Numbered from the stretch's first letter, positions 1-42,764 are shown. The stretch is DNA of 64,000 bases from Candidatus Omnitrophota bacterium (GCA_003154195.1 PMCS01000005.1:9449-73448), one strand, 5' to 3'. The notes: a model not told the origin generated them from the sequence alone. Made by a program: numbers and translations.

Positions 1-3000
1 TGGCGCTAAACCAACGGGGGAACCGGCGGATTCAGGTTCAGCGGCGGTCACGGCCAGGGTGGAAAAAACATTACGGAAGGAAAGTTCTTGTGGCGACGCC
101 TTGGGGTCAGCAGAGGAATTCCATTCAACTTTTAAATCCTTGCCGTCTTTCGGCCGGGATAAAAAAACATCTACTATTATTGACTTAGCCTCGCCAACCC
201 CCGTTCTCAAGCGTAAGGCTATTTTTATTCTTTCTTTATCCTTTTTCGGCCGGCGAAATGAATTGAGCAGTTTTAACGGGTTGGTAAGGGCGCCGGAAGG
301 AACCCCAAAGATTTCGCTTAAACCCCGCTCAACGCCATCCACAACCCACTCGTCAACCGCCATGAGCGGCTGGCGCTCCTTGTCCCGGTAAAATACCCTT
401 ATCGATGATCCTTCGTCAATAAGTTCAATTTGATAATCTAGCGAAGTTCTCGCGTTAACCGCCGCGACAAAACTATCCCGCGCGGCTTGAATTTGATCCA
501 GGCTAAAATCCCGCCCCTGCAGGTCATTGATTTTTCTCCTGAAAAGTTCAAGAGTATAAGCTAGAGACGTCTTGGAGGAAAAACTTCTAAGAAGGCCGTA
601 GGTTTCCGGCCTTCCTCTTTGCCCTACTCTTTCTTTACTCAAAAAGCTTTGCAACGCTTCTTCCATCATCCCAACGCTGACCTCGGCCGGCGCCTTAACA
701 ACCGCCGGACTGGCAACAACACTTCTCCGATGAGTAACATCCGGCTCGCCTTCGGCCAGATAGAATCGCTTTGATCGACCAGGGCCTTCCGAGCCCAAAA
801 GTTCTGCCGTTATTGATAGCATGTATTTCGCTAGTCCAGTTTTTCTATTCATATACGTATCGGTGTCGAGAAAAATATTTACCCGATGACTGTCGCCGTT
901 TAAACGAAAACGCACATCCCATGAATGACGGCCAGGCCTTTCTATTTGCCCAAAAAAATTTCTGCCCACTGCAACTTCCATCCTATCGCCCAAATAAAAC
1001 GACTCGCCTTTAGCCGGGAAACGCGCTTCAGCTACCACGGCGCCGGTCTCTTTGTCATAGATTAACAACGCTTTTTCTCCTGATAGCAATTCCCGTGACG
1101 GCACAAAGGTAACCACCCCGCCGGATTGGCCTTGGCTTTGTTCCTGGATATCCGGAAGCCCGGGTATTCTTACCGGGCTGGCGCTTACCCCTAGGCCCTT
1201 TGCCCTCTGGCCTGAGTCTACTTCTCTTTTACTGCCATCGGTTGTTGCCGGGGTTGAGCCGGCCACGACATTCGGGCTGGAAGAAGAACTTTTGTTAACC
1301 TGGATACGTTGGTTGCCGGCATCATAAGTCAACCGCGCGGCGCGTGTTTCCAATCCGTTATACGCGTCAACCAGGGCCGCCGCTTCCTGGCCGGTCATTT
1401 GCTCAACTGGTTTATCAAGTAAAGCCGCGCCTTCAGCGCTGAGCCTTTCCCACGCCTCGGCCAAAGACAAAACGTTTTGGCCCGACGGTAAATCCCTGAT
1501 GACATTATCCAGCTCCTGCGCCGCGATAGGGATAACATCATAAGGCGGGATGGCGATGCGCGCCTTTTCTGCTTCGCCTTCACGAACAACAATAATGTCA
1601 TGGTCGCGCGCCACGATTAAAGTCCGCGTGATTGCCGCATCACCGCGGTCTTGTTCGGAATAAGTATAGGACGCTTGCGACATGCCGGCTAAGCCGTTAA
1701 GCATATCGAACAGTTTGCTTCCGTCGGTAGCAACCCCGGTTATTTTTATGGATTGCTTTTTCAACCGCTCAAGCAATTGGCCCTGGATAATTTGCAGCCG
1801 CGAGGCTTTAATATCCCGGAAAAGACGGCCGGTAATCTGGCGGCGCGCCTCAGGGCTAAAGCGCGGGCCGGCGCCGTCGTATTTTCGGCTTGTCCCCAGC
1901 CGGGCAATGACCTTTTGCGAAGTTTTAACCATATCGCTTTCCGGCATCGGCTTAGGCGACATTACCGTTTCTCGCTTAAGCATATTGAGATGGCCGATAA
2001 TCGCCGAACGCACGATTGTATCGATATCGCTGTTATCCAGCTCCCAGGCATGCGCGGTTTTCGAACGAAGAGTATAATCTTTAATCTTCCCCGGGCTAGC
2101 ATATAATTTAGCAGCATCGCCGGCGCGCGGGCCGACATCTTCCTCCCTATATTCTATCCCCGGCACTACTTCTTTTAGAACTCCGGCGATTTTTTTCGCC
2201 AACGGCGCTACTTCCAGCCCTTCTCCCGTAGCCAGGTTATAATGCTGGTTCATCGTGGACGTCTCGCCGGGCAAATTATCTTCGATTTCCAGGCCGGCAA
2301 TATGCGCCGTCGCCAAATCCAAAACCGAAATATAATCGCGGGAAGGAGTACCGCTATCGGTAGGATATCCTTTACCGTAAAGTTGGACCGGCTTGCCTTC
2401 CAAAAGCAAACGAATGAATCGGGGGATAGCGTGAGTTTCCGGGCTGTGCCATTCGCCCATAGACTCAAACGGCATCCCTGCCGCAGCATTAAAATAATGG
2501 ACGCAAAACGCGTCGAGATTAGAATCCTTCATCACTTCGCCCATCCAGTGCTTGGTAAAACCATAAACACTCAAGGGGTTTTTTATCGATGCTTCGGTGA
2601 GCGGCATGGGTTGGTCGCCGTCATAGACTGCCGCAGTCAGCGAAGGAATGATCCGCATCCGCTTACCGTTTATTTTTTTGTATTTTTCCGCGGCTTCGAC
2701 AAGGTTCAACGGATTGATCAGGTTATTTTCGAAATATTGCCACGGCGCCAAGGCGTCAGGGCCGATTTCGATATAAGCCGCAAAGTGGATAATATCGTCG
2801 ATTTCCGGATGCTCCCGAAACATCGTATCGATTGCCGGACGGTCGGCAAGGTCAAGTGGGACAAAGGTGAATTTACGCCCCACTTTTACCGCGAATTCCC
2901 TTAAGAAATCAACCATCTCCTCGCGGCCTTTAACGAAATTATCCACGGCCACGATATCATATCCTTGCAAAAGCGCTTCGTAAATCGTATGGCCGCCGAT

Positions 3001-4950
3001 ATAGCCGGCGCCGCCGGTAACCAGAATCGTTTTGCCTTTACCGGGTTTATCCCTATCTTCGATCGCTTTCCTGACCCGCGCTTCGTGAGCTGATCTTTTC
3101 GCCTCAAGCGGCCGGGAAAGTTCAGCGATTGCCCAGTCAATCACCTCATTATCGTTCGGCGGAAGGGTCAGGCTCAATACCTTCAGCATGTTGGCGCGTA
3201 ACGAAGCGACGACATGTTCTTTATACTGTCGGTCTTGCGCGCTCAAACCGCTTTCCACCGGGCTGGAAGTGATTGGCGCCTCTACTGTGATATAAAATGG
3301 TTTATCGCTTCCTTCTTTTCTATGGAAAGGGCGCACTCTAACCGATATTGTTCTTTCAAAAAAGTCATAGCCAATGTCTATCGCTCCTCCCCAGCCATCT
3401 TCTGTATAACCTGCTGCCAGCAGGTTAACAGCCGGTTTGTTTATCGGCGGAGGTAATGCCGCGCCCCTGATAAAACCCGGTCCCGCTATTAGATTACGCT
3501 TTCCTAAATGACTCTGCATTGTTGCTAAAGACCTGCTGGTGCCGCGGCGATAAATTTTCAATACGCTTTCTTTTCTTATCAGGCGTTCATTCAACCGCTG
3601 CGATATATTAAATCTAACCCATTTGCCATTTTTTTGATCCTCTTCTGTAACTGTACCAATCGTACCAAAGGGTGCCGGGCTCCCCGTCACCGCAAACGCG
3701 TTATCATTCGCCGCATCTCCCGATAAAATGTCCGTTGTTATTACGTTCAGCCCTTTAGATGAATCGTGGATTTGTTCGGCTCTGGACAACACCTGTGTTT
3801 GCACCACCCCCGATGAAACAAGCGGCATCACTCCCCCCGAGAAGTATCTCCTCCTCACCTGCTTATGCGTCGCTGGGTCGGATTCTTTCTTTATATAGTC
3901 ATAGATACCCTTCTTAAAGGCTTGCGTATATAGGTTATAGATCTTCTCTTTAGCTTGTGGGTCATTAGTATCAATACCTTTTATCTTCTTCTGGTTGATA
4001 TAGTGTTTATAGAAAGATTCTTTAAACTTCTCTTTAAACCATTTAGCCAGGATGAGAGAGTAGTATATCTGTCTTAAAGTAGCAAAGTTCTTACCGGAAT
4101 TGATATCGTCGGTTATTTTAGGTACTACGACTTCACGCATTACGTCCGAAGCCACCTTGTTGATTTGTCCTGCTTTTTCATCCTTCGTCCCTCGTCCCTC
4201 GTCCTTCATTGCCCCTTCGTCCCTCGCCCCTCGTCTTTCATCCTTCGTTCCTTTCTGCAATGCGAGAAAGTCTTGTTCGAGCATTGCCTTAAGAGTAGCC
4301 TGGTTGACTACCGCCGTATTCTTATATTCATAGACTTCGGCTTTATCGGGAGCGATCCATATCTTATTGAAGGTATCTATCGGTAAATTACCGGTTCCCG
4401 GTAATTTACCGATTTGAGAATAAACCGATTGCCAGTATCGATTGCCGATAGAATTTTCTGGGTGGGTAAGGCTTGAGACTAATTGCTTAAGGACATAGTC
4501 CTGGGCTAACATATCACGTCCTACGTCGGTTGAAGCCGCGGAATCATTGATTATGCGGTCTTTTTCATATACGGATAAGTTTACCCATAAGTCGTCTTCA
4601 GGGATAGTCAGGCCGGCTAAAAAATACCGGATTAATTTTTCTGATTCTTTTTTCAACGCCTCTTGGTAACGGACAGGGCTTAGCCCTGTCCCTACATATT
4701 GCGCGTCCCAATTGCCGCTATCGATGATGAATTCTATCTGCAGCGGGTTAGCCGGGTTAAGTTTTAATCCTTTTAATATCGGGAAGGAATAGGTTGCTGA
4801 TAGTCCCAGTAACTGGGTAGGTTCCGGCAGGGTCAGGGCGGCGTGGGCGTAGTTGACGCCCAGGCTGGTACCCAGAAAAGAGAATAATACCAGCACAAGA
4901 GTGATTTTCGAGAATAACTTTCGTCTGGGTTGGGAGAAAAAGAAAATCAT
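1..4950 (-). CDS. Giant secreted multidomain protein, partial (3' end lies beyond window start). It has a signal peptide, an N-terminal ~430-aa domain paralogous to the 35784-39425 protein, and an embedded GalE-like NAD-dependent epimerase domain.
   Basis: Manual reverse-complement translation in consecutive 60-nt blocks from 4950 down to 1 gives one frame with no stop codon. The ATG is at 4948-4950 and the N-terminus is MIFFFSQPRRKLFSKITLVLVLFSFLGTSLGVNYAHA. DNA is ~85% identical to 38200-39425 across the N-terminal domain. The epimerase motifs ILVTGGAGYIGG, YGFTK (YxxxK), HYFNAAAG and RDYISVLDLA are in frame around 2200-3060. It is absent from the ORF track, presumably because it has no in-window stop. 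Confidence 0.75.
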   Translation of the reverse strand, partial: MIFFFSQPRRKLFSKITLVLVLFSFLGTSLGVNYAHAALTLPEPTQLLGLSATYSFPILKGLKLNPANPLQIEFIIDSGNWDAQYVGTGLSPVRYQEALKKESEKLIRYFLAGLTIPEDDLWVNLSVYEKDRIINDSAASTDVGRDMLAQDYVLKQLVSSLTHPENSIGNRYWQSVYSQIGKLPGTGNLPIDTFNKIWIAPDKAEVYEYKNTAVVNQATLKAMLEQDFLALQKGTKDERRGARDEGAMKDEGRGTKDEKAGQINKVASDVMREVVVPKITDDINSGKNFATLRQIYYSLILAKWFKEKFKESFYKHYINQKKIKGIDTNDPQAKEKIYNLYTQAFKKGIYDYIKKESDPATHKQVRRRYFSGGVMPLVSSGVVQTQVLSRAEQIHDSSKGLNVITTDILSGDAANDNAFAVTGSPAPFGTIGTVTEEDQKNGKWVRFNISQRLNERLIRKESVLKIYRRGTSRSLATMQSHLGKRNLIAGPGFIRGAALPPPINKPAVNLLAAGYTEDGWGGAIDIGYDFFERTISVRVRPFHRKEGSDKPFYITVEAPITSSPVESGLSAQDRQYKEHVVASLRANMLKVLSLTLPPNDNEVIDWAIAELSRPLEAKRSAHEARVRKAIEDRDKPGKGKTILVTGGAGYIGGHTIYEALLQGYDIVAVDNFVKGREEMVDFLREFAVKVGRKFTFVPLDLADRPAIDTMFREHPEIDDIIHFAAYIEIGPDALAPWQYFENNLINPLNLVEAAEKYKKINGKRMRIIPSLTAAVYDGDQPMPLTEASIKNPLSVYGFTKHWMGEVMKDSNLDAFCVHYFNAAAGMPFESMGEWHSPETHAIPRFIRLLLEGKPVQLYGKGYPTDSGTPSRDYISVLDLATAHIAGLEIEDNLPGETSTMNQHYNLATGEGLEVAPLAKKIAGVLKEVVPGIEYREEDVGPRAGDAAKLYASPGKIKDYTLRSKTAHAWELDNSDIDTIVRSAIIGHLNMLKRETVMSPKPMPESDMVKTSQKVIARLGTSRKYDGAGPRFSPEARRQITGRLFRDIKASRLQIIQGQLLERLKKQSIKITGVATDGSKLFDMLNGLAGMSQASYTYSEQDRGDAAITRTLIVARDHDIIVVREGEAEKARIAIPPYDVIPIAAQELDNVIRDLPSGQNVLSLAEAWERLSAEGAALLDKPVEQMTGQEAAALVDAYNGLETRAARLTYDAGNQRIQVNKSSSSSPNVVAGSTPATTDGSKREVDSGQRAKGLGVSASPVRIPGLPDIQEQSQGQSGGVVTFVPSRELLSGEKALLIYDKETGAVVAEARFPAKGESFYLGDRMEVAVGRNFFGQIERPGRHSWDVRFRLNGDSHRVNIFLDTDTYMNRKTGLAKYMLSITAELLGSEGPGRSKRFYLAEGEPDVTHRRSVVASPAVVKAPAEVSVGMMEEALQSFLSKERVGQRGRPETYGLLRSFSSKTSLAYTLELFRRKINDLQGRDFSLDQIQAARDSFVAAVNARTSLDYQIELIDEGSSIRVFYRDKERQPLMAVDEWVVDGVERGLSEIFGVPSGALTNPLKLLNSFRRPKKDKERIKIALRLRTGVGEAKSIIVDVFLSRPKDGKDLKVEWNSSADPKASPQELSFRNVFSTLAVTAAEPESAGSPVGLAP

Positions 4951-5249
4951 TGGTTTATTTTTTATTATTTTTTTTACTCTTTCAAATACTTAATATTAAT
5001 CAACAAAATATGAGTATTAATATATAACATATTTTTTAGGGAAAAACAAGGAAACGGGATATTTCTTTTTTTTGCTGCGCAAAAAAATAAATATCGTCCA
5101 TATTTAACCCAAAAAATGCCTGCACCCCTTGGTAGGGATGACTACTTCATAACCCAAAGAAAACCAATGAGTTAGGTATAAAACATTACGCAACGAAATT
5201 TTTTGGGTTAACTGGAGGATTAAGGGTGTCGGGAAGGGCTAAATTAAAG

Positions 5250-5300
5250 AAAAAATGCCGTCACCTATTCTCTTTTTTAGAATAAGATAACGGCATTTTT
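5250..5300 (-). terminator. Putative rho-independent terminator downstream of the CsgG-like gene
   Basis: Hairpin aaatgccgt...acggcattt, followed on the minus strand by a T-run (5253-5300). Confidence 0.4.
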
Positions 5301-5334
5301 CTAGAATTGGTAAAATACGTCAGTATTTTCCCAA

Positions 5335-6072
5335 TTAGTACTTATAGTAATCCGCCGGAGTGGCCTGTGAAATATATTTCACGGCTTCAATAATGCAAAC
5401 CCGGATGGCTTTTTCCATCGGCGTGTTGGCATACATGGAAAGGCCGCCGCCTAATCCCCAACTGCCGGCGAAACCGGCCATAAACCCGGCACTGAAATCT
5501 TTAGCCTGGCCCTGAACGCGGGTCGCGGCCAAAACTTCGGAAGTCGAAGCGTCAACGATACGGATATCTAATGCCATATGCGATTTATTCATCGCACCGC
5601 TCAATAACCCACCCACTAATGCGCCGGCAATACCGCCGCCGCCGCCGATTCCCGCTCCACCGCCGCTGGCATTAGGCTCAAATTCGGTAACCGCCGCGGT
5701 AATGATTAAATCCGCGGTTTTAATCTTACCGCGCTGGGCTCCGGCGGTGCCTTGCGCTGCCGCGCCGGACGCGCCTAATTCCTGCTCCTGCATAATCGCG
5801 CTTAACACCTGGCGCTCCACCACCCGGTAACGGCTGGAATTCATCAACGCCGTTATCAACATCTCGCGCAGGCCCGTGCCGATCGCTCCTCCGGCCTTGG
5901 CGGCTTTAACTTCAAAATCCGCCACGGCGATACGCGCTTTTGGCCCGTTATACGGCGGCATCGCCTGCGTGCCGGCGTTATTATCGACCTGGGCCGTCGG
6001 CTCAAGCGTAGCGCAACCGGCTAAACCACTGATTATTAAAACGCTCATCGTCAATGCTAAAAATTTCTTCAT
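5335..6072 (-). CDS. CsgG-family lipoprotein (curli-type secretion channel homolog)
   Basis: MKKFLALTMSVLIISGLAGC lipobox. RIAVADFEVKAAKAG...GLREMLITALMNSSRYRVVERQVLSAIMQEQEL resembles the CsgG N-terminal region. Glycine-rich segment. The likely start is the internal MKKF rather than the TTG at 6099. Confidence 0.5.
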   Translation of the reverse strand: MKKFLALTMSVLIISGLAGCATLEPTAQVDNNAGTQAMPPYNGPKARIAVADFEVKAAKAGGAIGTGLREMLITALMNSSRYRVVERQVLSAIMQEQELGASGAAAQGTAGAQRGKIKTADLIITAAVTEFEPNASGGGAGIGGGGGIAGALVGGLLSGAMNKSHMALDIRIVDASTSEVLAATRVQGQAKDFSAGFMAGFAGSWGLGGGLSMYANTPMEKAIRVCIIEAVKYISQATPADYYKY

Positions 6073-6099
6073 CGTTACCCCTCCTTGAATACTGGGCAA

Positions 6100-6275
6100 A
6101 GGCTATGGCAAAGATGCCTGTATGGGTTAGGGCTTAGGTCATGGCTGTAAATTCGTATCAGCCTTAACCATTACCTTAACCCAAACCGGCTTTCCGCCTT
6201 CGCTAAAGCTTCGGCGAGACTTCTCCGAAGCTCGAAGAGCGAAGGAGAGCCTAGCCCTAACCTTAACCGATTTTA
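6100..6275. repeat. Palindromic intergenic repeat element, family 1 (GGGTTAGGG arms, central GTAAATTCGTATCAGCC), copy 1
   Basis: Shares atgcctgtatgggttagggc...ggctgtaaattcgtatcagcc...acccaaaccggctt with the copies at 23895, 26289, 27545, 29520 and 35620. Confidence 0.7.
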
Positions 6276-6866
6276 TTATTTCTGTTTATTCAACGCGTCG
6301 ATTATTTTCAATGCCAAGCTTTCCGCGGCGCGCGATAATGCTTCCCGGCCGCCGCTGATAAGGTCCGGATGGGCGGAATTTCCCGCGGCATCAAGGTAAG
6401 CGATAACCTTGCCGTCCTTAGCGCGAATAAGTTTGGCGGTAATATTTCCATAGCACGATTTCATATTCGACTGCGGAACATTGCCGCCGCTGGAAGCGAT
6501 TGCCTTGCCTAATATAACATAATCGGCGCCGGAGGAATTGCCTAATTGCGCCGATTCGCCCTGAGAAATATCCACCACGCGAAACGCCGGCTTCTGCTTG
6601 ATGACTTTCTCCGCGACAGAAGTATCGATAACATCATACCCCTCTTCAATCAGTTTTGTGGCGATTGCCGCCTCGGTCGTCGAAAGGTCAATCTCACTGG
6701 CCCACCACGCTTTCTGCGGGCCTTCGATATTCTGTTCGGCGATAAGTAAAATTACCTTAGGCTTTGCCGCAACAGGTTCCGCGCTGGTAACATTCTGGGA
6801 AAACACCGCGCCGCCGGTTAACGCAAACAAAAACAACAGTGTCCAAAAGAAAATATTTTTTTTCAT
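6276..6866 (-). CDS. Secreted hypothetical protein (signal peptide), encoded directly upstream of the CsgG-like gene
   Basis: Its position just upstream of the CsgG-like gene suggests a partner role, which is inference. N-terminal MKKNIFFWTLLFLFALTGGAVFS signal. No recognisable catalytic motif. Confidence 0.4.
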   Translation of the reverse strand: MKKNIFFWTLLFLFALTGGAVFSQNVTSAEPVAAKPKVILLIAEQNIEGPQKAWWASEIDLSTTEAAIATKLIEEGYDVIDTSVAEKVIKQKPAFRVVDISQGESAQLGNSSGADYVILGKAIASSGGNVPQSNMKSCYGNITAKLIRAKDGKVIAYLDAAGNSAHPDLISGGREALSRAAESLALKIIDALNKQK

Positions 6867-7148
6867 GGCTGCTCCTTTTGTAAAAAAATTCCTTACAGCG
6901 GCTATCCCCGCAGCAAGACTGCGGGGCGTTACGCCGCTCGTATGCCGCTTCGCGGCACCGGAATTTTTTTACATTCCATTCTCGTTCATCCCCAGGCCAG
7001 GTCAAAAACGGTTAGTTGTTTACAATGACCGTTGTCGCTTCACGCCGACCGCCAACTCATCCCTGCGACAAGACCTAAAGACGAGACATTGGCGGAAAAA
7101 CTTAAACCCCCTTCGCCGATATTTCAGGGTAATACACTAACGTCAACT

Positions 7149-7526
7149 TCAGCCGGCGACCATGATCAACTCTTTTATCTTATCCAGCAAAAGCTGAGGC
7201 TCAAACGGCTTAATAATATACGCGTCAGCCCCGACTTTTTGGCTGAATTTTATATCATCTTCCTGTGAACGCCCGGAAAAAATAATCACCGGAATGTTCT
7301 TAAAGCGCCGGTCTTTTTTAAGCAAGCCGCAAACCCAAAACCCGTCCATTTTGGGCAACATCAAATCCAAAAGAATTAAATCGGGCTTATCCTCCTTGGC
7401 TTTCCTGAGCGCGTCTTCCCCATCGTAAGCCGTCACAACCTCATACTGCTCCGCTTCCAAACGAAGCCGCACGATCCGAACCAACGACTCTTCATCGTCG
7501 ACCACTAATATTTTTTTCCTGTCCAT
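7149..7526 (-). CDS. Single-domain response regulator (CheY-like receiver)
   Basis: ILVVDDEESL...LLDLMLPKMDG...IIFSG...ADAYIIKPF matches receiver-domain signature residues. Confidence 0.8.
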   Translation of the reverse strand: MDRKKILVVDDEESLVRIVRLRLEAEQYEVVTAYDGEDALRKAKEDKPDLILLDLMLPKMDGFWVCGLLKKDRRFKNIPVIIFSGRSQEDDIKFSQKVGADAYIIKPFEPQLLLDKIKELIMVAG

Positions 7527-7741: not shown

Positions 7742-9172
7742 TTAAAAAAAACGGGCACCTTTTCGGTCACTTTCGTCTTCTTTAAGTACCTGCAAAAACG
7801 CGTCGACGACTTTTGGGTCAAACTGCTGGCCACTGCCTTTAACCAATTCCGCCATCGCCGCCTCCCGGCTCATTGCCGGCCGATAGGCGCGCGCGCTGGT
7901 CATCGCGTCATAAGCGTCGGCCACGGAAACAACCGCAGCAAAAATATGAATACCGGTACCACTTAACTTATCGGGGTAACCGGAGCCGTCGAAACGCTCG
8001 TGATGGCCCCGGATAATCGCCAGCACCTCTTCGGTAAGCTGAATCGGTTTTAAAATTTCTTCGCCGATAACCGGGTGCTCCCTGATTTTTTTCCACTCCT
8101 CATCGGTAAGCCGCCCGGTCTTATTCAGGATATTTTCGGCCACGGCGAGTTTACCGATATCATGCAAATACGCCGCGTCGCGCAATAACTCGATTTTTTC
8201 CAGAGGAAAACCCATGCGCGCGGCGATTTGAACGGCGTATTCGGCAACACGCTCCGAATGTCCGCAGGTATAAGAATCTTTGGCTTCTAAAATACGAATC
8301 AGCGATTTAATGGCATTATAGAAATAATTGTTGAGCTTGACGCGGGAACTATGAAGGCTCTCTGCCATGCGATTGAAAGAATCCGCCAGGAGGCTTAATT
8401 CGTCATCGCCGGAGATTTTAACCCGGTACTGTAAATTATCTTTAGCGATATTCTCGGTGCCTTTAACTAATTCTTCGATGGGCTTGGTGATACTGCGCGA
8501 TACCAATGTCCCCAGAAACAACGAGAAGATAACCCCGAAAAGTAACACCAGCGTAGCGCGCCCCTGAATTTCTTCCTGGGCCAAATAAACATCGCCGGCC
8601 ATAAGGTCGACTCCCAGAATAGCCGCGGCAGTTCCTTTTTTGTCGCGGATAGGAGCGTATCCGGAAACAAGCTTGCCCCACCGGTCTTCGCCTATTTTCT
8701 TATCCGCCGTCGGCCCGTTAAAAGCACGCATCATCTCGGGAAAATTCGACGGGTTATATTCATCTCCGGGGTATGAGGCCAAACCGTTATTGCCGGGTTC
8801 GCGGGATACCGGTTCAGAATCCACAATATAACATAACCGGCCGGGCCTGACGGCCCTGCTCATAATGTAGATACGGCGTATCGGCGGATTGGCGTTTTTG
8901 ATCGCGTTTATCTGTCCGGATATTTTTTTATATTCCGAAGAATTTACCGCCTCTTTATTCAGCTTGATCTGCGCCAGCATTTCGGCATCAATCGTCAAGG
9001 CCGCCGTTTGCGCGATAATCCGCAGATTATCCCGAAATTGCGCGAACTGAGAATTAAGCGAGTAGCGGTAAATGAGATAATCGCTTAAGGCCCCGGCGCA
9101 GAGCATCGCCACGATAAACACAAAGGCGATTTTCATGCGGAAAGTACTCAAGAATAATCCGGCTTTTTTCAT
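7742..9172 (-). CDS. HD-GYP domain c-di-GMP phosphodiesterase-type sensor protein with N-terminal TM, extracytoplasmic sensor region and HAMP
   Basis: HD...HDIGK...GYP motifs (CGHSERVAEYA...LHDIGKLAV...RFDGSGYPDKL). N-terminal TM MKIAFVFIVAMLCAGAL and a second TM before a HAMP-like linker. Confidence 0.8.
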   Translation of the reverse strand: MKKAGLFLSTFRMKIAFVFIVAMLCAGALSDYLIYRYSLNSQFAQFRDNLRIIAQTAALTIDAEMLAQIKLNKEAVNSSEYKKISGQINAIKNANPPIRRIYIMSRAVRPGRLCYIVDSEPVSREPGNNGLASYPGDEYNPSNFPEMMRAFNGPTADKKIGEDRWGKLVSGYAPIRDKKGTAAAILGVDLMAGDVYLAQEEIQGRATLVLLFGVIFSLFLGTLVSRSITKPIEELVKGTENIAKDNLQYRVKISGDDELSLLADSFNRMAESLHSSRVKLNNYFYNAIKSLIRILEAKDSYTCGHSERVAEYAVQIAARMGFPLEKIELLRDAAYLHDIGKLAVAENILNKTGRLTDEEWKKIREHPVIGEEILKPIQLTEEVLAIIRGHHERFDGSGYPDKLSGTGIHIFAAVVSVADAYDAMTSARAYRPAMSREAAMAELVKGSGQQFDPKVVDAFLQVLKEDESDRKGARFF

Positions 9173-11055: not shown

Positions 11056-11565
11056 TTAAAGTGAATTACCACCGACTGAAGCCGGATGATTTTCTTTGTT
11101 TTCGATATATTTCACGAAAACAACAAGGTCGTCGCCGTCTTCGTAAAAATCTTTTATCCTGCCCGCCTCCTTAAAATCCTGTTTGAGGTAAAAATTACGC
11201 GCGGCGGAATAGTCGACCCTCGACGACGTTTCAACCCGTAAAATTGCCTTGGGATATTTAGCGGACAAAAAATCCTGCACTTTCGTTATTAATCTTTTGC
11301 CCATGCTCCGGCGCTGGAAATGCCGGTCCACCACAAGCCAATAGATATCCCAGGCAAACTCGGTCATGGGAGTTCTGCCAAAAATGACAAACCCGACCAC
11401 GCGGTCGCCGTCTTTTTCTTCAAAAATGCGGTAAGTGGTACCGGGATTGCCGCGATAATCCTCGACGACTTCGTTTAAGGTATCGATTTCAACCGATTTG
11501 AAAACTTCAGAGTTTCTGGCGATAGTCAGATAGATATCGCCGACGGTCAATTCTTGTTCGTACAT
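11056..11565 (-). CDS. GNAT family N-acetyltransferase
   Basis: WLVVDRHFQRRSMGKRLI...LRVETSSRVDYSAARNFYLKQDF resembles the GNAT acetyl-CoA binding motif region. Confidence 0.75.
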   Translation of the reverse strand: MYEQELTVGDIYLTIARNSEVFKSVEIDTLNEVVEDYRGNPGTTYRIFEEKDGDRVVGFVIFGRTPMTEFAWDIYWLVVDRHFQRRSMGKRLITKVQDFLSAKYPKAILRVETSSRVDYSAARNFYLKQDFKEAGRIKDFYEDGDDLVVFVKYIENKENHPASVGGNSL

Positions 11566-11709
11566 AGCCCCTCCTGAATATCATTGCATTTCTTTACGCA
11601 GTAAACCCCGTTAGAGAACTCCGTTCTCTAACGGTCTGCGCTGACAGTGGCATTAGACCACCGTCAGCTTTATCGCTGGACAACCGCCGCCTAAAGTCGG
11701 CGGCTTTCT

Positions 11710-12702
11710 CTAACGGGGTAAAAATAAAGACCCGATTATTTTTCCGATCACCTGGTTATAGCCATACCCCTTAGAATAGGCTTGCTTCATAAAACCGCTG
11801 TCCCGATTGATATCGGGATTAGGGTTTACATCCAGAACAAAAAGTTCGTTATCTTTCTGGCGCAGATCTACCCGGAAATAGCTGCGGCAGTTTAAAGCTT
11901 TAGCGGCTTCCCGGGATAACGATATTATCCTATTTTTAATATTTTTATCAATATTTTCCTTAAGCGAAGGCATAATTTTTTTAAACTCCAGGGACTGCCG
12001 ATTCCACTTGGAATTATAAGTTAAAAAAGGCGGCAAGCCTTTATAACGGGAGTAATCAATAACGGAAATACCCAGCAATTCATACGGCCAATTGCCCAGA
12101 AACCCCACGCTATACTCTTTACCCCATAAGAATTCCTCTACGATAACACCGTCGGAGAATTGGCGCAGCTTGTCTTTAACGATAGCGGGCAAATGTTTTT
12201 TCGAAGCCACTAAAGAATTATCGTCAATACCGAGGCTGGCGTCTTCGCGCGCCGGCTTGACAAAAACAGGGTAACGCAAAAGCTCCGGTTTAAGATCGCC
12301 TAATGCCTTGATATGCAATCCCGCCGGCACGGCTATACCGCGGCGCGCCATAATCCGTTTAGCCGCGCTTTTATCCAGGCAAGCATTAAGCGTCCGGGAA
12401 CCGTTCCCGGAAAAAGGTATTTTTATTTCCTCTAAAATTTCGACAAAATCTACCTCTTTTTGCGCATCGCCGCTGAAACCCTCGAAAAGATTAAAAATAC
12501 AGCAGGGATTGAACACGGCGATTTTTTTCTTTATTAACCCGCGGGTTAAGAAATCTTTTTTCGTAATCCCCACGGTAACGGCGCTAAAACCATTTTTTAA
12601 AATAGCCCGGCGCACGCAGGTATAACAACGCACGATGTCCCGCATATCCTTGCGCAATAACCTTTCCCGCGGAATAATAATTACTACTTTATTACTATGC
12701 AT
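11710..12702 (-). CDS. ATP-grasp ligase, D-Ala-D-Ala ligase-like family
   Basis: LDKSAAKRIMARRGIAVPAG...YPVFVKPAREDASLGI...VIVEEFLWGKEYSVGFLGN...VDLR...LFVLDVNPNPD. The start is probably the internal ATG at 12702, which overlaps the upstream stop in a TAATG arrangement. Confidence 0.7.
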   Translation of the reverse strand: MHSNKVVIIIPRERLLRKDMRDIVRCYTCVRRAILKNGFSAVTVGITKKDFLTRGLIKKKIAVFNPCCIFNLFEGFSGDAQKEVDFVEILEEIKIPFSGNGSRTLNACLDKSAAKRIMARRGIAVPAGLHIKALGDLKPELLRYPVFVKPAREDASLGIDDNSLVASKKHLPAIVKDKLRQFSDGVIVEEFLWGKEYSVGFLGNWPYELLGISVIDYSRYKGLPPFLTYNSKWNRQSLEFKKIMPSLKENIDKNIKNRIISLSREAAKALNCRSYFRVDLRQKDNELFVLDVNPNPDINRDSGFMKQAYSKGYGYNQVIGKIIGSLFLPR

Positions 12703-14150
12703 TAAATTACCAAAAGCCTCCATGGCGCCACGTATACGGAAAAAACTTTGCCCATTAAAATTATCCGGCTGAAAATATATTCGGGATTGCCCAGGCTCCA
12801 AAGGGGAATCTTCAGAAACAATTCATTGCCCCGGGAAATCAATTCAGCCCCGGGAATACGAAATGCCTTGCGATTGGCGTAAGCGATAACCCTCTTGTTT
12901 TTCGCCCGCAAAAATAGTTTCGGCATTTCGCTGAAATTCCGGTCCTGCCGGTAACCTAAAAGATGGATATGCGCCCATATCTGCGGCGCGACATTTTTGT
13001 AAAAAGAAATCTTCAGATACAGGAAACCGGGATCGCGGCGCAAATAAATATCCGAGATAACTTTCGAGTACAATTCTCTCGGATAACGACGGTCATTTTT
13101 AGTCAAAACGAGCTGCGGCTGGGTATAAAACAGTTCGTTCTTACGCACGAAACTTAAAAGATAGGATTTTTTGAAAGATAGCTGGCTCGTATATGCGAAA
13201 AGGGCTTTATACTTATTTTTTATTTCGTTATCCGTTAAAACTAATTTAATCCAGTTTTTATCTCCTGATTCCAAATCGGGCGGTGTCTCAAGCTCTTCGC
13301 CGGGAAAATACTGCTGGCGGCTCGGCCAATTTATTTTATGAACAAGGTACAGATAAACCACGGGGTCTTTCAACGTACGCCGTAAATCGAGCAACGCGAC
13401 GTTAAGATAAACAAAAGCGCTGCGGTGATCGGGATTAGTATCCTGGGGACTGGAAACAAAAATTTTTGTCGGCTTAAACGCGCTGAGGATATTTTTAAAA
13501 TCATTCAGAATGCTCCCGCCGATGTAAGGCGCACCGTAAGATAACGCGCTTTCGTAAGGAACCTTGTTGAGATGCGTTAGGAGGCTATGGAACGGATTTT
13601 CTTTATTCCAAAAATTCAAGAGAATGGCTTCAGTAAACCGATCCGGATAACCTAAAAATATAATGTCTCCCCCCGTAATCCCCAGAGAAGCCGTGGCGCT
13701 GACAGCTTCTCTCTGCCTTATTTTTCCTATCGTCACAAATCCGCTCCGGAATAGCGCTAATTGTTTTTTGTAAAAAAGAAAAGAAATCTCATTATAATCG
13801 CCGTTGGTAAAATATGCCACCTTAACGGCGGCTTTAGCGTTCAATGCCTTCTGGATAACGCCGCCTGAAGCGATGATTTCGTCATCCGGATGAGGGGCGA
13901 TTATCAAAACCCTATCCTGCGCGGTAAAATTTAAATCAGACTGGGCAAAGCAAGCGCTAAAAATTCCAAATAACAAATTCCAAATAACAAATAAATACCA
14001 AATTCCAATTACCGAATGGCCAAAACAGCTTCTGCTCTGGATATTGGAACTTTGGTTATTGGAATTTTCCCGCCCCTTATTATTCTGGCTTAGCGGGATC
14101 CCGCAAGAGACGGGAATTTGGGATTTGGGATTTGGGATTTGGGATTTCAT
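12702..14150 (-). CDS. LmbE/PIG-L family N-acetylglucosaminyl deacetylase-like protein with N-terminal TM helix
   Basis: VLIIAPHPDDEIIASGG motif, N-terminal hydrophobic helix. The first codons are encoded by the caaatccc tandem repeat (MKSQIPNPKSQIP). Confidence 0.7.
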   Translation of the reverse strand: MKSQIPNPKSQIPVSCGIPLSQNNKGRENSNNQSSNIQSRSCFGHSVIGIWYLFVIWNLLFGIFSACFAQSDLNFTAQDRVLIIAPHPDDEIIASGGVIQKALNAKAAVKVAYFTNGDYNEISFLFYKKQLALFRSGFVTIGKIRQREAVSATASLGITGGDIIFLGYPDRFTEAILLNFWNKENPFHSLLTHLNKVPYESALSYGAPYIGGSILNDFKNILSAFKPTKIFVSSPQDTNPDHRSAFVYLNVALLDLRRTLKDPVVYLYLVHKINWPSRQQYFPGEELETPPDLESGDKNWIKLVLTDNEIKNKYKALFAYTSQLSFKKSYLLSFVRKNELFYTQPQLVLTKNDRRYPRELYSKVISDIYLRRDPGFLYLKISFYKNVAPQIWAHIHLLGYRQDRNFSEMPKLFLRAKNKRVIAYANRKAFRIPGAELISRGNELFLKIPLWSLGNPEYIFSRIILMGKVFSVYVAPWRLLVI

Positions 14151-14174
14151 AATGTTTCGATCAAATATAATTTT

Positions 14175-15194
14175 CTACTTTAACCGGACTCCATATCTCG
14201 CCAGCGCTTCTTTTAATATTATTCTCACCAGTTTTGAATAATTCCCGCCGTTAAGCCGGTAAAGAATCGGCAAATCACTGTAACACGGGCTAAGCCCGGC
14301 AAGAGGGTTGATATCGATGATACGGGGGATATTGTTTTGATCGAGCCGGAAATCAATGCGGGCTATATCGCGCAACTCCAGAGCGCGAAAAGCGCATAAA
14401 GCGTAGCGGGTGATTAATCCTCGCGCCGGAGAAGGAATAACCATCGGCGGCTCGTATTTTATTTTTTCCTTCCAGTCTCGCTTATTTTCGATGGAGTATA
14501 AAAAAAACCGCGGGGATTTTTCTTTGGGAGCAATACGCATCATCCCCAACAAACGGCTCTTGTTTGCGTTGCCGCATACTGCCGCCGTGATTTCATCTCC
14601 CGGCAAAAATTCTTCGATTACCGCCGGCTGCTTATATTTTTTTATAACAAATCCGACGCGTTTTTTCAGAGAACCGTAATCAACGGCCACGGAATTAAGA
14701 AATATCCCCTTGGAAGACCCTTCCCAGCGGGGTTTAACAATGAAATTTTTGCCTTCGTCAAAAATTTCATTGCCGAAGGGAAATAACCGGCTATCGTTTA
14801 CCAAATACATTTGAGGCACAGGAATAACATTAGCGCGTAAAATAACATTGGTGAGACATTTATCGAGAGTAATTCCCAGAGCAATCGGGTCGGAACCGGA
14901 ATAGGGCATCCTAAGACTTTCCAGAATACAAGGAACCTGAGATTCCCGGCCGCGGCCGGCTCCGATTCCTTCGGCAAGATTAAACACAAAATCAATTTTT
15001 TCACGCGCGAGTTTAGCGAAAAAATTACCGTCTTGTTCTAAGCGGACAGTCTTAAAACCATAACGCTTGATTTCGGTTTCCACCGCCCGGATGGTTTCTA
15101 TTTCGTCATACTCCTCGCAGGAATCATCCGAAGTATTTTTGCGTTTAAGATTGTAGGCAATACCGATAGTTTTGATAGATAATTTTTTAGGCAT
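14175..15194 (-). CDS. ATP-grasp ligase, D-Ala-D-Ala ligase-like family
   Basis: IDFVFNLAEGIGAGRGRESQVPCILESLRMPYSGS (Ddl-type N-domain), FIVKPRWEGSSKGI, VIEEFLPGDEITAAVCGN, IDINPLAGL. Confidence 0.7.
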   Translation of the reverse strand: MPKKLSIKTIGIAYNLKRKNTSDDSCEEYDEIETIRAVETEIKRYGFKTVRLEQDGNFFAKLAREKIDFVFNLAEGIGAGRGRESQVPCILESLRMPYSGSDPIALGITLDKCLTNVILRANVIPVPQMYLVNDSRLFPFGNEIFDEGKNFIVKPRWEGSSKGIFLNSVAVDYGSLKKRVGFVIKKYKQPAVIEEFLPGDEITAAVCGNANKSRLLGMMRIAPKEKSPRFFLYSIENKRDWKEKIKYEPPMVIPSPARGLITRYALCAFRALELRDIARIDFRLDQNNIPRIIDINPLAGLSPCYSDLPILYRLNGGNYSKLVRIILKEALARYGVRLK

Positions 15195-15437
15195 ACTATT
15201 TATAAAAAGTAGAGAGTCGACCTGCCGGCAGGGAGGGCAGAGTAAAGAGATAAATACTCGTTGATCGTTGAAAGGTTGCGTAACTCGTTACGGTATTCGG
15301 TAAAAAGACGGTAACCGTATAACGACAGCCGATTCCAGCTACGCAGCCGACAGCCGATTGACATATTTCTCTCTACTCTCTACTCTCTGACAAAGGCAGT
15401 ATTTTACCACGCCTTTTAAAAATATAAAGAGACATTT
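15195..15437 (-). promoter_or_regulatory. Structured leader or inverted-repeat region upstream of the ATP-grasp/LmbE/ATP-grasp/GNAT genes
   Basis: Inverted repeat gtagagagtcgac ... ctctctactctctactctctg ~150 bp apart. Internal palindromes cctgccggcagg and cgttacggt...accgtaacg. Direct repeats acagccgatt. Confidence 0.3.
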
Positions 15438-15484
15438 AATAAAAAAGCGCTGACTGTATCCTCGTCGGCACAATCAGCGCTTTG
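15438..15484 (-). terminator. Putative rho-independent terminator downstream of kamA-like gene
   Basis: Hairpin aaagcgctgactg...caatcagcgcttt, followed by TTTTTTATT on the minus strand. Further hairpins lie at 15545-15598. Confidence 0.45.
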
Positions 15485-15599
15485 CTTCCTAACGTATTTT
15501 ACTAACCTATGTTTTCCCGCTTCCTTCGTTCTCGCCATTTGCTACAAAACGGCAAATGGCGAAGTCTCGCCAATTTGATTAACAAATTGGCGGACTTCT

Positions 15600-16763
15600 T
15601 TACCCTTTCGGACTGTAGTAAAAAAATGTTTCGTTCTTGTAATTACGCAACGTAACCCCATCGGGAGACATAGAAACCAGATAATTAGGGCTTATGGGAA
15701 TTTTTCCTTTACCGTCAATACCATCAACGACATACGTCGGTATGCACAACCCGCCGGTATGGCCTCTCATTTTTTCTAAAATCTCGATACCGCGCCAGAC
15801 GCTGGTCCGAAAATGCCAGGCACCCACCACCGGATCGCATTGATACATATAATATGGCCTTACCCTTATCGCCTGTAACTTCCGGCACAATTCGATCATG
15901 ACCTGTGGATCGTCGTTAACGCCGCGCAACAATACCGACTGGTTACTTATCGGTATGCCGCACCTCTGAAGCTTACCGCAAGCGGCAATTGAATCGGGAT
16001 TTACCTCCCGGGGATGATTAAACTGCACATTAACCCAAAGATTATGATATTTCTCAAGGACTTTACATAGATTGTCGTCGATACGCTCAGGCATTACCAC
16101 CGGCGACCTTGTCCCGATGCGCACAACTTCCACGTTGGTACGCCGCACCACCGACGATAAAATATAATCCAGCCTTTCGGTCGGCAAGGTAAGCGGATCG
16201 CCGCCGGATATAATAACTTCCCGTATTTGCGGATTATCCTGAACATAAGTTAACGCCAAATCGATATCTTTCAATGTCGGTTCGGCAAGCTTAGTATGCC
16301 AAAGCCTCTTCCTTGTACAATGACGGCAATACATAAAGCATTTTCCCGTCACCAGAAGCAAAACTCTGTCGGGATAACGATGCACCAAGCACGGCACGGG
16401 AGAAGTTTTTTCTTCCGACAACGGGTCTATCCGTTCATGCTCTTCCTGCCTTATTTCTTCCGGCGAAGGCACACATTGCATTCGTATTGGGTCTTTAGTA
16501 TCGGCATAATCTTTGATCAGTGAAAAATAATGAGGGGTAATCCGCATATGGTATGTTTTAGCGACTTGCCTTAGGTTGGTTTTGTCTTCTTCGCTTAAAG
16601 ACAGGTAACGAGACAGGTCCTCGACACTCCTGAGGGAATTCTTATACGCGGTATGCCAATTTTGGCAAGAAGTAATCACTAAAACCGCATTGTCACTGCC
16701 GGATTCTTCGATGCTACCGCCAGGCTCCTCGTCAACCGAGCCGACATTTTTTTTATTTTCCAT
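15600..16763 (-). CDS. kamA: KamA-family radical SAM lysine 2,3-aminomutase
   Basis: CxxxCxxC cluster in LLLVTGKCFMYCRHCTRKRLW, ISGGDPLTL, and KamA-type C-terminal region. SD AAGGAGG precedes the ATG. Confidence 0.75.
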   Translation of the reverse strand: MENKKNVGSVDEEPGGSIEESGSDNAVLVITSCQNWHTAYKNSLRSVEDLSRYLSLSEEDKTNLRQVAKTYHMRITPHYFSLIKDYADTKDPIRMQCVPSPEEIRQEEHERIDPLSEEKTSPVPCLVHRYPDRVLLLVTGKCFMYCRHCTRKRLWHTKLAEPTLKDIDLALTYVQDNPQIREVIISGGDPLTLPTERLDYILSSVVRRTNVEVVRIGTRSPVVMPERIDDNLCKVLEKYHNLWVNVQFNHPREVNPDSIAACGKLQRCGIPISNQSVLLRGVNDDPQVMIELCRKLQAIRVRPYYMYQCDPVVGAWHFRTSVWRGIEILEKMRGHTGGLCIPTYVVDGIDGKGKIPISPNYLVSMSPDGVTLRNYKNETFFYYSPKG

Positions 16764-22265: not shown

Positions 22266-22342
22266 TCCCTGGTAGCTCAGTTGGTATGAGCAGCTGACTG
22301 TTAATCAGCGGGCCGCAGGTTCGAGCCCTGCCCAGGGAGCCA
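22266..22342 (+). tRNA. tRNA-Asn (anticodon GTT)
   Basis: 7-bp acceptor stem tccctgg/ccaggga, D-arm gctcagttggtatgagc, anticodon stem gctga/tcagc with loop ctGTTaa, T-arm gcaggttcgagccctgc, discriminator g, encoded CCA. Confidence 0.85.
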
Positions 22343-34863: not shown

Positions 34864-35052
34864 TCAGGTCTTTTTATCGCCGCCAGCGCCGTAACGCGCC
34901 AGCGCTTTCCTTATCCGAGCAGGCACGCATAGACATCTAAGCTCATTTATCTCCTTAAGCCAGATAAGTTTATTTCTGGGAGAAATCAACATCCCCCGGC
35001 GAATTCTTTCCTCCCGGCTTTCCCAGCCAAAATCTATATTTTTTCCCTTCAT
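34864..35052 (-). CDS. Small hypothetical protein, translationally coupled to upstream nucleotidyltransferase-like gene
   Basis: 4-bp overlap with 35049-35549. Basic. No motif recognised. Confidence 0.3.
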   Translation of the reverse strand: MKGKNIDFGWESREERIRRGMLISPRNKLIWLKEINELRCLCVPARIRKALARYGAGGDKKT

Positions 35053-35619: not shown

Positions 35620-35785
35620 CTTGGTTAGGGCAAGGGTAATGATGCCGGTATGGGCTAAAGACTTGGCTAGGCAAGGGCCATGATGCCAGTATGGGTTAGG
35701 GTTAGGGCTGTAAATTTGTATTAGCCCTGACCTTTGCCTTTACCCAAACGGGCTTCTTAACCCTGGCCTTTACCAATCTTTTTTC
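35620..35785. repeat. Palindromic intergenic repeat element family 1, copy 6 (with duplicated left arm)
   Basis: ggttagggcaagggtaatgatgccggtatgggctaaag + ggcaagggccatgatgccagtatgggttagggttagggctgtaaatttgtattagccctgacctttgcctttacccaaacgggcttcttaaccctggcc. Confidence 0.7.
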
Positions 35786-40334: not shown

Positions 40335-40396
40335 AAACTAAAACCATTGTCCACAGATTGCTCTGAACCGATTATTCCTTACACAGTAAAAATAAT

Positions 40397-41476: not shown

Positions 41477-41514
41477 TCATTTTGCGCAGGAAAAGTGAAT
41501 TATAACCAATTGAG

Positions 41515-42760: not shown

Positions 42761-42764
42761 TTTT

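Follow-up and report, generated by a model that had tools for sequence, protein, structure and literature searches.

A 3,210-codon Omnitrophota gene with an embedded GalE-like epimerase belongs to a large protein family with conserved ends

We analyzed a 64,000-nucleotide stretch of DNA from a Candidatus Omnitrophota bacterium (GCA_003154195.1, PMCS01000005.1:9449-73448; hereafter the window). Its first 4,950 nucleotides are, on the minus strand, the 5′ half of a real gene, 3,210 codons long, from this uncultivated organism, referred to below as the giant gene. Direct translation from the ATG at 4948-4950 down to position 1 reads through 1,650 sense codons without a stop, as had been claimed in a first-pass annotation made from the sequence alone. 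That annotation was also right that the open reading frame (ORF) is absent from the ORF track and runs off the window edge; the ORF lister omits the 4950-1 minus-strand frame because it exits there. An open frame of 1,650 sense codons at ~50% GC cannot have arisen by chance. The total length, for which the annotation had looked to a contig outside the window, was supplied by a gene call on ENA contig k141_1147481: the full gene spans 9.6 kb and encodes a product of 3,210 amino acids (aa), of which 3,205 codons are readable and free of stops. Residues are numbered on the window protein to aa 1650 and on the sequence from this contig (L005) beyond. The parts of the gene within the window, all on the minus strand, are as follows.

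1-4950, minus strand: 5′ half of the giant gene, the first 1,650 of 3,210 codons; no in-frame stop, remainder outside the window.
4840-4950, minus strand: signal peptide, aa 1-37, MIFFFSQPRRKLFSKITLVLVLFSFLGTSLGVNYAHA↓A; the single hydrophobic segment of the protein, with a predicted cleavage site.
3832-4839, minus strand: family-defining N-terminal domain (NTD), aa 38-373, ending RRRYFSGG; recognized by 64% identity to a paralog and by profile.
4181-4235, minus strand: GA-rich heptamer repeat in a loop of the NTD; Tandem Repeats Finder gives period 7 and 7.3 copies, the reverse complement of TCCCTCG.
3031-3831, minus strand: orphan spacer, aa 374-640, with two (A/G/S)SP(V/A) linker motifs; no homologue and no Pfam match.
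1996-3030, minus strand: GalE-type epimerase domain of the extended short-chain dehydrogenase/reductase (SDR) class, aa 641-985; PF01370, TIGR01179, 8wxk_A.
1-1995, minus strand: orphan region, aa 986-1650, split by (A/S)SP(V/L/A) motifs and continuing past the window edge.

Beyond the window, the full protein continues with these parts.

Between the GalE-type and HD domains: orphan sequence of ~1,400 aa in all; no Pfam match.
About aa 2369-2459 (L005): HD phosphohydrolase domain, PF01966, 29 bits against a cut-off of 22, with LLFHDIGK at aa 2396.
After the HD domain: orphan sequence of ~700 aa; no Pfam match.
aa 3159-3205 (L005): C-terminal tail GGIKMSNIPVISSAASQKMEFAAIGPDFFDRLTFRIVSMKHIASLAQ, the C-terminal module (CTD) of the family.

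In agreement with the first-pass annotation, the N-terminus is built like a Sec signal peptide: RRK..K precedes a 19-aa hydrophobic stretch and AHA↓A. In a hydropathy scan this stretch was the sole transmembrane (TM)-like segment, and no second one was found across 3,205 aa of the giant protein. About 2,000 aa of the protein are orphan sequence. The spacer and the region after the GalE-type domain had no homologue among 5.8 billion proteins in a word-indexed search and no phmmer homologue among the 120 family members introduced below, and the orphan parts of the full protein had no Pfam match. The more than 900 aa previously said to follow the epimerase amount to 665 aa within the window and ~2,220 aa in the full gene. 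One short motif recurs along the chain and partitions it into modules of ~140-700 aa: (A/G/S/T)SP(V/L/I/A/M) was observed 11 times against 1.1 expected, and its strict form 7 times against 0.13 expected. Sites of the (A/S)SP(V/L/A) form lie at aa 423, 562, 1257, 1413, and 1643 of the window protein and span aa 410-3130 in L005, a roughly 10- to 50-fold excess over shuffled sequences. A nucleoside diphosphate kinase-like reading of aa 2800-3100, made by eye on the full protein, was dropped because neither Pfam nor PDB sequence matches support it.

The claim of a complete NAD-dependent epimerase domain was borne out by Pfam, by the galE model, and by the motifs in frame. In the profile hidden Markov model searches that the annotation had proposed, PF01370 (Epimerase) matched aa 642-894 (E 1e-34, 120.5 bits against a cut-off of 20.9), and the NCBIfam galE model TIGR01179 aligned to aa 642-983 with 200.4 bits against an equivalog cut-off of 262.3. 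Because the latter score falls below the curated cut-off while PF01370 passes, we label the domain a GalE-like extended SDR; its active site is apparently intact, and its substrate is unproven. All four motifs reported earlier are present in frame, namely ILVTGGAGYIGG at aa 642 (window 3027-2992), YGFTK at aa 796, HYFNAAAG at aa 818, and RDYISVLDLA at aa 871. Among solved structures, the closest match is UDP-glucose 4-epimerase 8wxk_A (E 2e-46), and alignment to it shows that GGAGYIGG, VDN, T772, Y796xxxK800, YFNAA, the YPTDSGTPSRDYISV substrate loop, and RAGD are kept. The Rossmann NAD-binding GxxGxxG is TGGAGYIGGH (aa 645-654), aligned to the corresponding motif of 8wxk_A. At the catalytic Ser/Thr position stands T772, within SLTAAVYDG and four residues ahead of Tyr, as does Thr in 8wxk_A, and the catalytic Y-x-x-x-K is Y796-G-F-T-K800.

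GalE interconverts UDP-glucose and UDP-galactose using a tightly bound NAD+. With this enzyme the embedded domain shares GxxGxxG, T/S-Y-x3-K, YFN, YPTxxGTxxRDYI(H/S)V, and RxGD. GalE, however, is a free enzyme of ~330 aa, whereas here the domain occupies aa 641-985 of a 3,210-aa signal-peptide protein. The closest relatives of the domain, at 37-40% identity, are GalE proteins that stand alone and are 381-404 aa long, one of them from Candidatus Tantalella remota (Omnitrophota). A free-standing SDR encoded in the window (45737-46723) was considered as the source of the fused domain and rejected, as it shows 23% identity and belongs to another subfamily. Three other members of the family described below carry an epimerase (P0003, P0067, and P0071); the domain stands at differing positions in them, with 25-32% identity, implying that epimerase cargo is old or was acquired more than once. 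P0003 (NCBI GCA_015233405.1, locus L014) is a 2,618-aa protein with an epimerase and a URO-D domain.

The first-pass annotation had left two explanations for the fusion, a genuine gene in a lineage known for giant genes or an artefact of assembly or frameshift. We retrieved the same locus from public assemblies by way of two complete upstream genes (window 6279-6866 and 5338-6072). In one assembly (L003; ENA contig k141_10273186, ERZ27250262) the product is 100% identical across the 1,650 window codons and extends 55 codons more. In another (L001/L005; ENA contig k141_1147481, ERZ27256921) the DNA is 99.6-99.9% identical to the window, and the window protein shares 99.2% aa identity with the L005 product. 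The sole structural difference among the assemblies is an in-frame indel of 39 nt (13 codons), with the window and L003 longer than L001/L005. It falls in the heptamer repeat at 4181-4235, which encodes KDE/RG low-complexity sequence and differs in length between assemblies. Unrelated low-complexity inserts occupy the same NTD loop in other family members, such as VESVKPVGPVAGLKSSKGINGLNERN in the paralog and "GARSPRPGQ..." in others. A genuine fusion is thus supported by the identical frame in independent assemblies and by the Omnitrophota relatives, and an artefact is excluded for 1-4950 because those assemblies carry the same uninterrupted frame.

Seven further independent short-read contigs (L004, L006-L011) terminate within the first 77-282 codons of the giant gene, as would be expected if the NTD, a multi-copy near-repeat, breaks assemblies. 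Family genes in metagenome-assembled genomes (MAGs) are probably under-represented or truncated for this reason. A scan of genome contigs with aa 1001-1650 found no extension of the gene, and a scan of metagenome contigs with the C-terminal 400 aa found nothing.

A second gene of the same kind lies in the window, and tblastn found exactly two NTD copies within the 64 kb.

35784-39425, minus strand: complete paralog, 1,213 aa, with signal peptide, NTD, orphan middle, and CTD; BLASTP E 2e-165.
~38334-39305, minus strand: NTD of the paralog.
~35787-35960, minus strand: C-terminal module of the paralog, tail GGIKMSNIPVTSSPASSKIELGKIGPDFFDHLTFNIVSLRKMDSLAEFAALP; aligns with the family CTD and with the tail of the giant gene.

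The paralog shares 64% aa identity with the giant protein over aa 1-407. The N-terminal paralogy noted in the first-pass annotation is therefore real (BLASTP E 2e-165), with two corrections: DNA identity is 73-74% and not ~85%, and the shared region ends near aa 373 and not ~430. The paralog, its C-terminal module included, had no Pfam or NCBIfam match at E<=0.01. GC content is 0.49-0.52 in both family genes (window 1-4000 and 36001-38000) and mostly 0.42-0.47 elsewhere, with an exception of 0.49-0.50 at 6-10 kb. What had been a side remark is the defining feature of the gene, and the epimerase represents just one of numerous exchangeable cargo types.

This paralogous family is very large, and all of its named members are Omnitrophota. 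The whole 1,650-aa query returned 677 protein matches, the best 120 of which align to only the first 20-30% of the query; these 120 are 921-2,814 aa long, and every organism-named one is from Omnitrophota, the genus names having been checked for their taxonomic placement. We built an NTD profile (A1) from 31 sequences, with the giant protein as first row, 40 invariant columns, and a mean column identity of 46%. Searched against 1.84 billion cluster representatives, it matched 8,238 clusters at 50% identity, 6,719 of them at E<=1e-30. In all of the best 150 of these, whose lengths are 422-4,134 aa, the NTD starts within the first 78 residues. GTDB species representatives contain at least 572 NTD loci, often several per genome, and the best 80 of these fall in Omnitrophota-labelled MAGs or in bins labelled "uncultured Planctomycetales/Planctomycetia".

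The other end of these proteins is conserved as well. The CTD, ~60 aa long, consists of GGI(D/K)(L/F/M), 25-35 residues, and G(F/L)(T/S)(F/P)xI(I/V). This motif lies within the last 130 aa of 114 of 122 proteins, the paralog and the full giant gene included, and of the eight proteins without it, some carry a partial annotation or sit on contigs barely longer than the gene. It comes in at least two flavours, "GFTFxI" and "GFxPVIINIxP..LLG". Across 102 proteins, NTD and CTD divergence are correlated, with a Spearman coefficient of 0.42 against a permutation maximum of 0.08. The family thus has a fixed plan of Sec-type signal peptide, ~335-aa NTD, freely variable middle, and ~60-aa CTD. Its minimal complete member, P0225, has 518 aa: a signal peptide, the NTD, 130 aa, and the CTD.

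Neither the NTD nor the CTD matched Pfam or NCBIfam, and the NTD had no significant match in PHROGs and no PDB sequence match. A PADLOC match of the NTD to DndF (E 0.0022, 14.9 bits) was taken as chance. AlphaFold2 modeled the NTD with a predicted local distance difference test (pLDDT) score of 78.7 and a predicted template-modelling score of 0.79, as a mixed alpha/beta domain in which three beta-hairpins pack with long helices. Foldseek comparison of the NTD with PDB folds gave a best E of 0.37, and the rows for colicin Ia, NheA, and MakA/B were at noise level. A model of the NTD and CTD of P0225, made with a paired natural alignment, reached a pLDDT of 52, with the CTD below 50. This bracketed, mid-size family of 1-4 thousand amino acids (kAA) is large, confined to one lineage, and not represented in curated domain libraries.

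Between the two ends, 58 of the best 120 matches carry Pfam domains. The most frequent cargo is listed here by number of members among those 120.

Pyruvate phosphate dikinase (PPDK)/PEP synthase: 8 members.
Phosphoglucomutase: 7 members.
HEAT repeats: 6 members.
Triosephosphate isomerase (TIM): 4 members.
Phosphoglycerate kinase (PGK): 4 members.
HATPase: 4 members.
Enolase: 3 members.
SDR epimerase: 3 members.

Further cargo comprises iPGM, PGI, GAPDH, hexokinase, FBP aldolase/phosphatase, UDP-glucose pyrophosphorylase, GHMP, guanylate and CoaE kinases, radical SAM/B12 domains, methyltransferases, peptidases, and ankyrin and TPR repeats; radical SAM domains occur in members P0076 and P0090. 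One locus from Hainich groundwater (L013, ENA ERZ1292635) holds three members in tandem: a GatZ/KbaZ-like protein of 973 aa, a TIM and enolase protein of 1,383 aa, and a PGK and PPDK protein of 2,498 aa. A small PilZ gene lies between the last two. The linker motif of the giant protein also recurs across the family, (A/S)SP(V/L/A) being observed 56 times in the 120 relatives against 2.8 expected. An (A/S)S(S/A)(P/A)-hydrophobic motif stands 10-30 aa ahead of the CTD in 31 of 112 members, compared with 1.7% of background windows. The recurrent motif may serve simply as a linker, or it may mark processing sites.

The N-termini of 112 members have a median of four K/R and no D/E ahead of a strongly hydrophobic core (median Kyte-Doolittle value 2.65), and a c-region of ~15 aa with A-x-A-like residues precedes the conserved LPxP start of the NTD. 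In 80 of 120 members there is no further TM-like segment. Export by the twin-arginine (Tat) route, whose substrates carry a conserved S/T-R-R-x-F-L-K motif ahead of a weakly hydrophobic core, was considered and rejected: RR occurs in only 18 of the 112 members, the hydrophobic cores are strong, and the RRKLF of the giant protein is QQKLF in its closest relative, P0001.

Taken as a whole, the explanation that best fits these observations, and one we regard as fairly probable, is that of a real fused gene whose product is exported by Sec, with the NTD and CTD serving as handling modules and the enzymes working outside the cytoplasm. The signal peptide would direct the polypeptide through the Sec translocon, and the whole chain would cross the cytoplasmic membrane. 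The shared NTD and CTD would be common modules by which the protein is sorted, anchored, or assembled, either at the envelope or at the contact face of an ultra-small, host-attached cell. Because two conserved, co-diverging ends flank unrelated cargo, they are better read as handling modules than as part of each enzyme's chemistry. Enzymes of cytoplasmic type would be placed outside the producer's cytoplasm, and the epimerase and HD modules might act there on nucleotide sugars or nucleotides from a partner or prey cell. Export, the functions of the two ends, and the site of enzyme action are our inferences from sequence; a surface or periplasmic location of the enzymes seems to us, on balance, the probable one.

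Several observations weigh against this explanation. A Sec-exported GalE would need to fold and to acquire NAD+ outside the cytoplasm. Other cargo makes similar demands, as PGK, hexokinase, PPDK, and guanylate kinase need ATP, and radical SAM enzymes need S-adenosylmethionine (SAM), Fe-S, and B12. NAD+, ATP, SAM, Fe-S, and B12 are cofactors not expected in the periplasm or outside the cell. The sub-threshold TIGR01179 score (200 against 262 bits) leaves the substrate of the epimerase uncertain. Among 53 family loci, no transporter, sortase, or protease gene recurred as a conserved neighbour, and the lack of an NTD fold match together with the NTD+CTD model pLDDT of 52 means that sorting or anchoring has no structural support. 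Signal-peptide cleavage and topology were judged by hydropathy scan and residue counts. Moreover, in ~13 of 120 members the NTD is followed immediately by a TM-like segment, which would keep the cargo of those members in the cytoplasm. Three readings of location remain, because the cofactors of the cargo are cytoplasmic and the cargo of some members would be returned across the membrane.

The first of the other two readings places the cargo inside the cell. The N-terminal hydrophobic segment would be an uncleaved anchor that tethers a cytoplasmic scaffold to the membrane, so that the cargo faces the cytoplasm; where some members have a TM helix behind an external NTD, this helix would return the cargo inside, and the scaffolds would form metabolons for glycolysis and sugar-nucleotide metabolism. 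This arrangement would supply the cytoplasmic NAD+, ATP, SAM, and Fe-S that the cargo requires, and it accommodates the TM-like segments right behind the NTD. A preprint likewise reads the regulatory and metabolic content of TM-only giants as compatible with a cytoplasmic face (10.64898/2026.06.07.730766). However, the positive-inside rule and the A-x-A-like c-regions put the sequence after the segment outside, most members, the giant gene with its 3,205 aa included, have no second TM-like segment that could bring it back, and a signal peptide followed immediately by a conserved domain, here of 335 aa, is an arrangement typical of exported proteins. We therefore consider a cytoplasmic scaffold unlikely, though deserving of some weight.

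The second reading sends the cargo further. The NTD and CTD would form, or dock to, a translocation device through which the enzymes enter an attached host or prey cell, use its cofactors, and redirect its metabolism, on a plan like that of TpsA/CdiA or of MARTX toxins, which are cut in the linkers between their variable central effectors. Such delivery would square a Sec signal with cofactor-dependent cargo, and it suits the conserved ends with a freely variable middle, the enriched linker motifs within the proteins and just before the CTD, and a phylum of ultra-small epibionts or predators (PMC10066038). Against it, Pfam and NCBIfam revealed no RTX, CPD, TPS, or other translocator domain, the 53 loci contain no conserved partner gene, the resemblance to pore-forming toxins is at noise (Foldseek probability <=0.05, TM-score ~0.1), and housekeeping glycolytic enzymes would be odd effectors. 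We regard effector delivery as less likely still.

The two-partner-secretion (TPS) exoproteins TpsA, FHA, and CdiA resemble this family in having a signal peptide, a shared N-terminal domain of ~300 aa, and a long variable remainder, that is, one handle with many payloads. They differ in that the TPS/Haemagg_act domain (PF05860) is not matched here, the NTD model is mixed alpha/beta with no beta-helix, and the C-terminus, variable in CdiA, is conserved in this family; no TpsB/Omp85 gene was found adjacent to the giant gene, to the paralog, or at the 53 family loci. MARTX toxins share the conserved ends around a mosaic of enzyme modules and the linkers with short recurrent motifs, but they use the C-terminal signal of a type I secretion system where this family has a Sec signal peptide, and they carry toxins where this family carries housekeeping metabolic enzymes. 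Neither Pfam nor NCBIfam detected RTX repeats or a cysteine protease domain in the window protein, its L005 continuation, or the paralog. Cargo of the type IX secretion system (T9SS), a system of Bacteroidota, also combines an N-terminal Sec signal and a large variable payload with a short conserved C-terminal domain (~80 aa in T9SS) common to hundreds of proteins that are not otherwise related, yet the C-terminal module of the paralog has no T9SS CTD match in Pfam or NCBIfam, and T9SS cargo has no conserved NTD. The likenesses to TpsA/CdiA, T9SS, and MARTX are formal and none amounts to membership, the defining domains having been tested and found absent.

A third alternative dispenses with catalysis. 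The protein would be a surface coat or adhesin in which enzyme folds have been repurposed for binding or spacing, with an inactive epimerase. Orphan sequence makes up most of the protein (~2,000 aa), the cargo of the family also includes HEAT, ankyrin, and TPR repeats, the galE equivalog score is under its cut-off, and Omnitrophota giant proteins have been proposed as coats or adhesins (PMC10066038). On the other side, the NAD-binding, catalytic, and substrate-binding motifs of GalE are all kept at 34-40% identity to working enzymes, which implies selection on catalysis; the HD motif is intact, and the cargo is skewed strongly to one pathway, glycolysis/gluconeogenesis with sugar activation. 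We regard a non-catalytic coat as very improbable.

Finally, the possibility that a separate epimerase gene was mis-joined to an unrelated signal-peptide gene, for which one could cite the near-repeat character of the NTD (two window copies at 73% DNA identity), the contigs that break early in the gene, and the internal repeat of variable length, is virtually negligible, given that the window, ERZ27250262, and ERZ27256921 agree in frame across the NTD/spacer, spacer/GalE, and GalE/orphan junctions with no difference beyond the in-frame indel and 3,205 stop-free codons, that P0003, P0067, and P0071 hold epimerase domains at other internal positions, and that the GalE segment lacks a separate start, stop, or spacer.

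Within the export explanation, a more far-reaching version can be put forward tentatively. The NTD and CTD might be the two ends of an undescribed, Omnitrophota-wide sorting or translocation system that moves cytoplasm-type metabolic enzymes to the cell surface or into an attached host or prey cell, with the (A/S)SP(V/L/A) motifs as processing sites that release the modules. The enzymes moved would span much of glycolysis and gluconeogenesis, together with sugar-nucleotide enzymes like the GalE domain, kinases, and radical SAM enzymes. We think this version unlikely as it stands, and part of central metabolism would run outside the cell body if it held.

The first-pass annotation had called a cytoplasmic-type GalE domain in such a protein very unusual. 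Within Omnitrophota this does not hold: thousands of signal-peptide proteins carry cytoplasmic-type enzymes, and similar content has been published for giants. Giant ORFs of the phylum have been described (PMC10066038), and West-Roberts et al. (2023) reported "Archaeovorins" with TIM, PGI, FBPase, PGM, aldolase, and PPDK domains, noted that these domains are predicted to be extracellular, and suggested proteolytic processing (10.1101/2023.11.21.568195). Among Omnitrophota proteins of at least 10 kAA, 94% have a signal peptide and/or TM helices, and a "multi-enzyme metabolic cluster" class has been defined (10.64898/2026.06.07.730766). The general phenomenon of enzyme domains in signal-peptide-bearing Omnitrophota giants is thus already published. 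The giant gene comes from the same phylum, has the same N-terminal signal peptide and the same unannotated sequence broken by cytoplasm-type enzyme domains, and raises the same question of whether the enzymes are extracellular; HEAT repeats and an epimerase have also been reported in giants. Its signal-peptide-like N-terminus and two unrelated enzyme domains, Epimerase and HD, match the make-up of the published class. It differs in size, as published giants have at least 10,000 aa (2026 preprint) or genes of more than 20-30 kb (Seymour 2023; West-Roberts 2023), above its 3,210 aa and 9.6 kb, and in having no internal TM helices, whereas they have tens to more than 100. A mid-size (1-4 kAA) NTD/CTD family did not come up by term search in PMC10066038, 10.1101/2023.11.21.568195, and 10.64898/2026.06.07.730766.

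Omnitrophota are widespread, uncultivated, and ultra-small, are thought to live on or prey on other cells, and present a recognized puzzle in their long proteins. The family extends this puzzle beyond genes encoding 10,000 to more than 100,000 aa, to thousands of proteins of 1-4 kAA that have a common NTD and CTD and differ in between, the variable middle very often being an enzyme of glycolysis or sugar activation. Two domains absent from Pfam and NCBIfam, along with a recurrent linker motif, provide a handle for locating where these enzymes act. Should export hold, central carbon metabolism in this phylum would be at least partly extracytoplasmic or host-delivered, with no close bacterial precedent. 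There is also a practical side, as family genes are mis-annotated and break short-read assemblies at the repeated NTD. P0003, for instance, bears the plain NCBI name "UDP-glucose 4-epimerase GalE" in spite of its length, so that genes of this family can pass as ordinary pathway enzymes in metabolic reconstructions.

The immediate surroundings of the giant gene comprise the following features.

4951-5334, minus strand: intergenic region upstream of the giant gene, with a hairpin and an AT-rich promoter-like stretch.
4985-4957, minus strand: promoter-like site TTGAAA-17-AAAAAT, in the AT-rich stretch ahead of the ATG.
~5256-5295, minus strand: terminator-like hairpin followed by a T-run, after the CsgG-like gene; -26 kcal/mol, z -7.1 against shuffles.
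5335-7526, minus strand: genes for a CsgG-like lipoprotein (PF03783, E 3e-40), a weakly matched GNA1162-like lipoprotein, and a response regulator, directly upstream.
7742-9172: HAMP-HD-GYP protein, preceding the CsgG/GNA1162/response-regulator group, as does a DUF1318 protein.

The hairpin and the promoter-like stretch suggest that the giant gene is its own transcription unit. We considered the CsgG-like gene as a dedicated secretion channel and rejected it: the strong hairpin separates the two genes, and CsgG is absent at the paralog, at L013 and L014, and from the 2 kb upstream of 53 other family loci. In at least 7 of the 53 loci another family member lies directly upstream; no other neighbour recurs.

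Elsewhere in the window, the minus strand at 11056-16763 encodes a GNAT acetyltransferase, two D-Ala-D-Ala-ligase-like ATP-grasp enzymes, a PIG-L-family deacetylase, and a lysine-2,3-aminomutase-like radical SAM protein, and this cluster may be a small-molecule or peptide-modification pathway. A sugar-modification/glycan cluster occupies 43291-57434 on the minus strand, with a GT2 glycosyltransferase, a PMT_2-like protein, the free-standing SDR mentioned above, two DegT aminotransferases, a class I/II aminotransferase, a dehydroquinate (DHQ)-synthase-like enzyme, two HpcH/HpaI aldolases, and a thiamine pyrophosphate enzyme. The segments 29724-32272 (minus strand) and 39621-43263 hold an extracytoplasmic function sigma factor with a zf-HC2/DUF4349 anti-sigma-like protein and the LptF and LptG permeases, the latter implying a diderm, lipopolysaccharide-bearing envelope. 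Adjoining the paralog are SmpB, a ComF-like phosphoribosyltransferase, and an AbiEii-like nucleotidyltransferase (35049-35549). The sole RNA gene detected across the 64 kb is a tRNA-Asn at 22266-22342.

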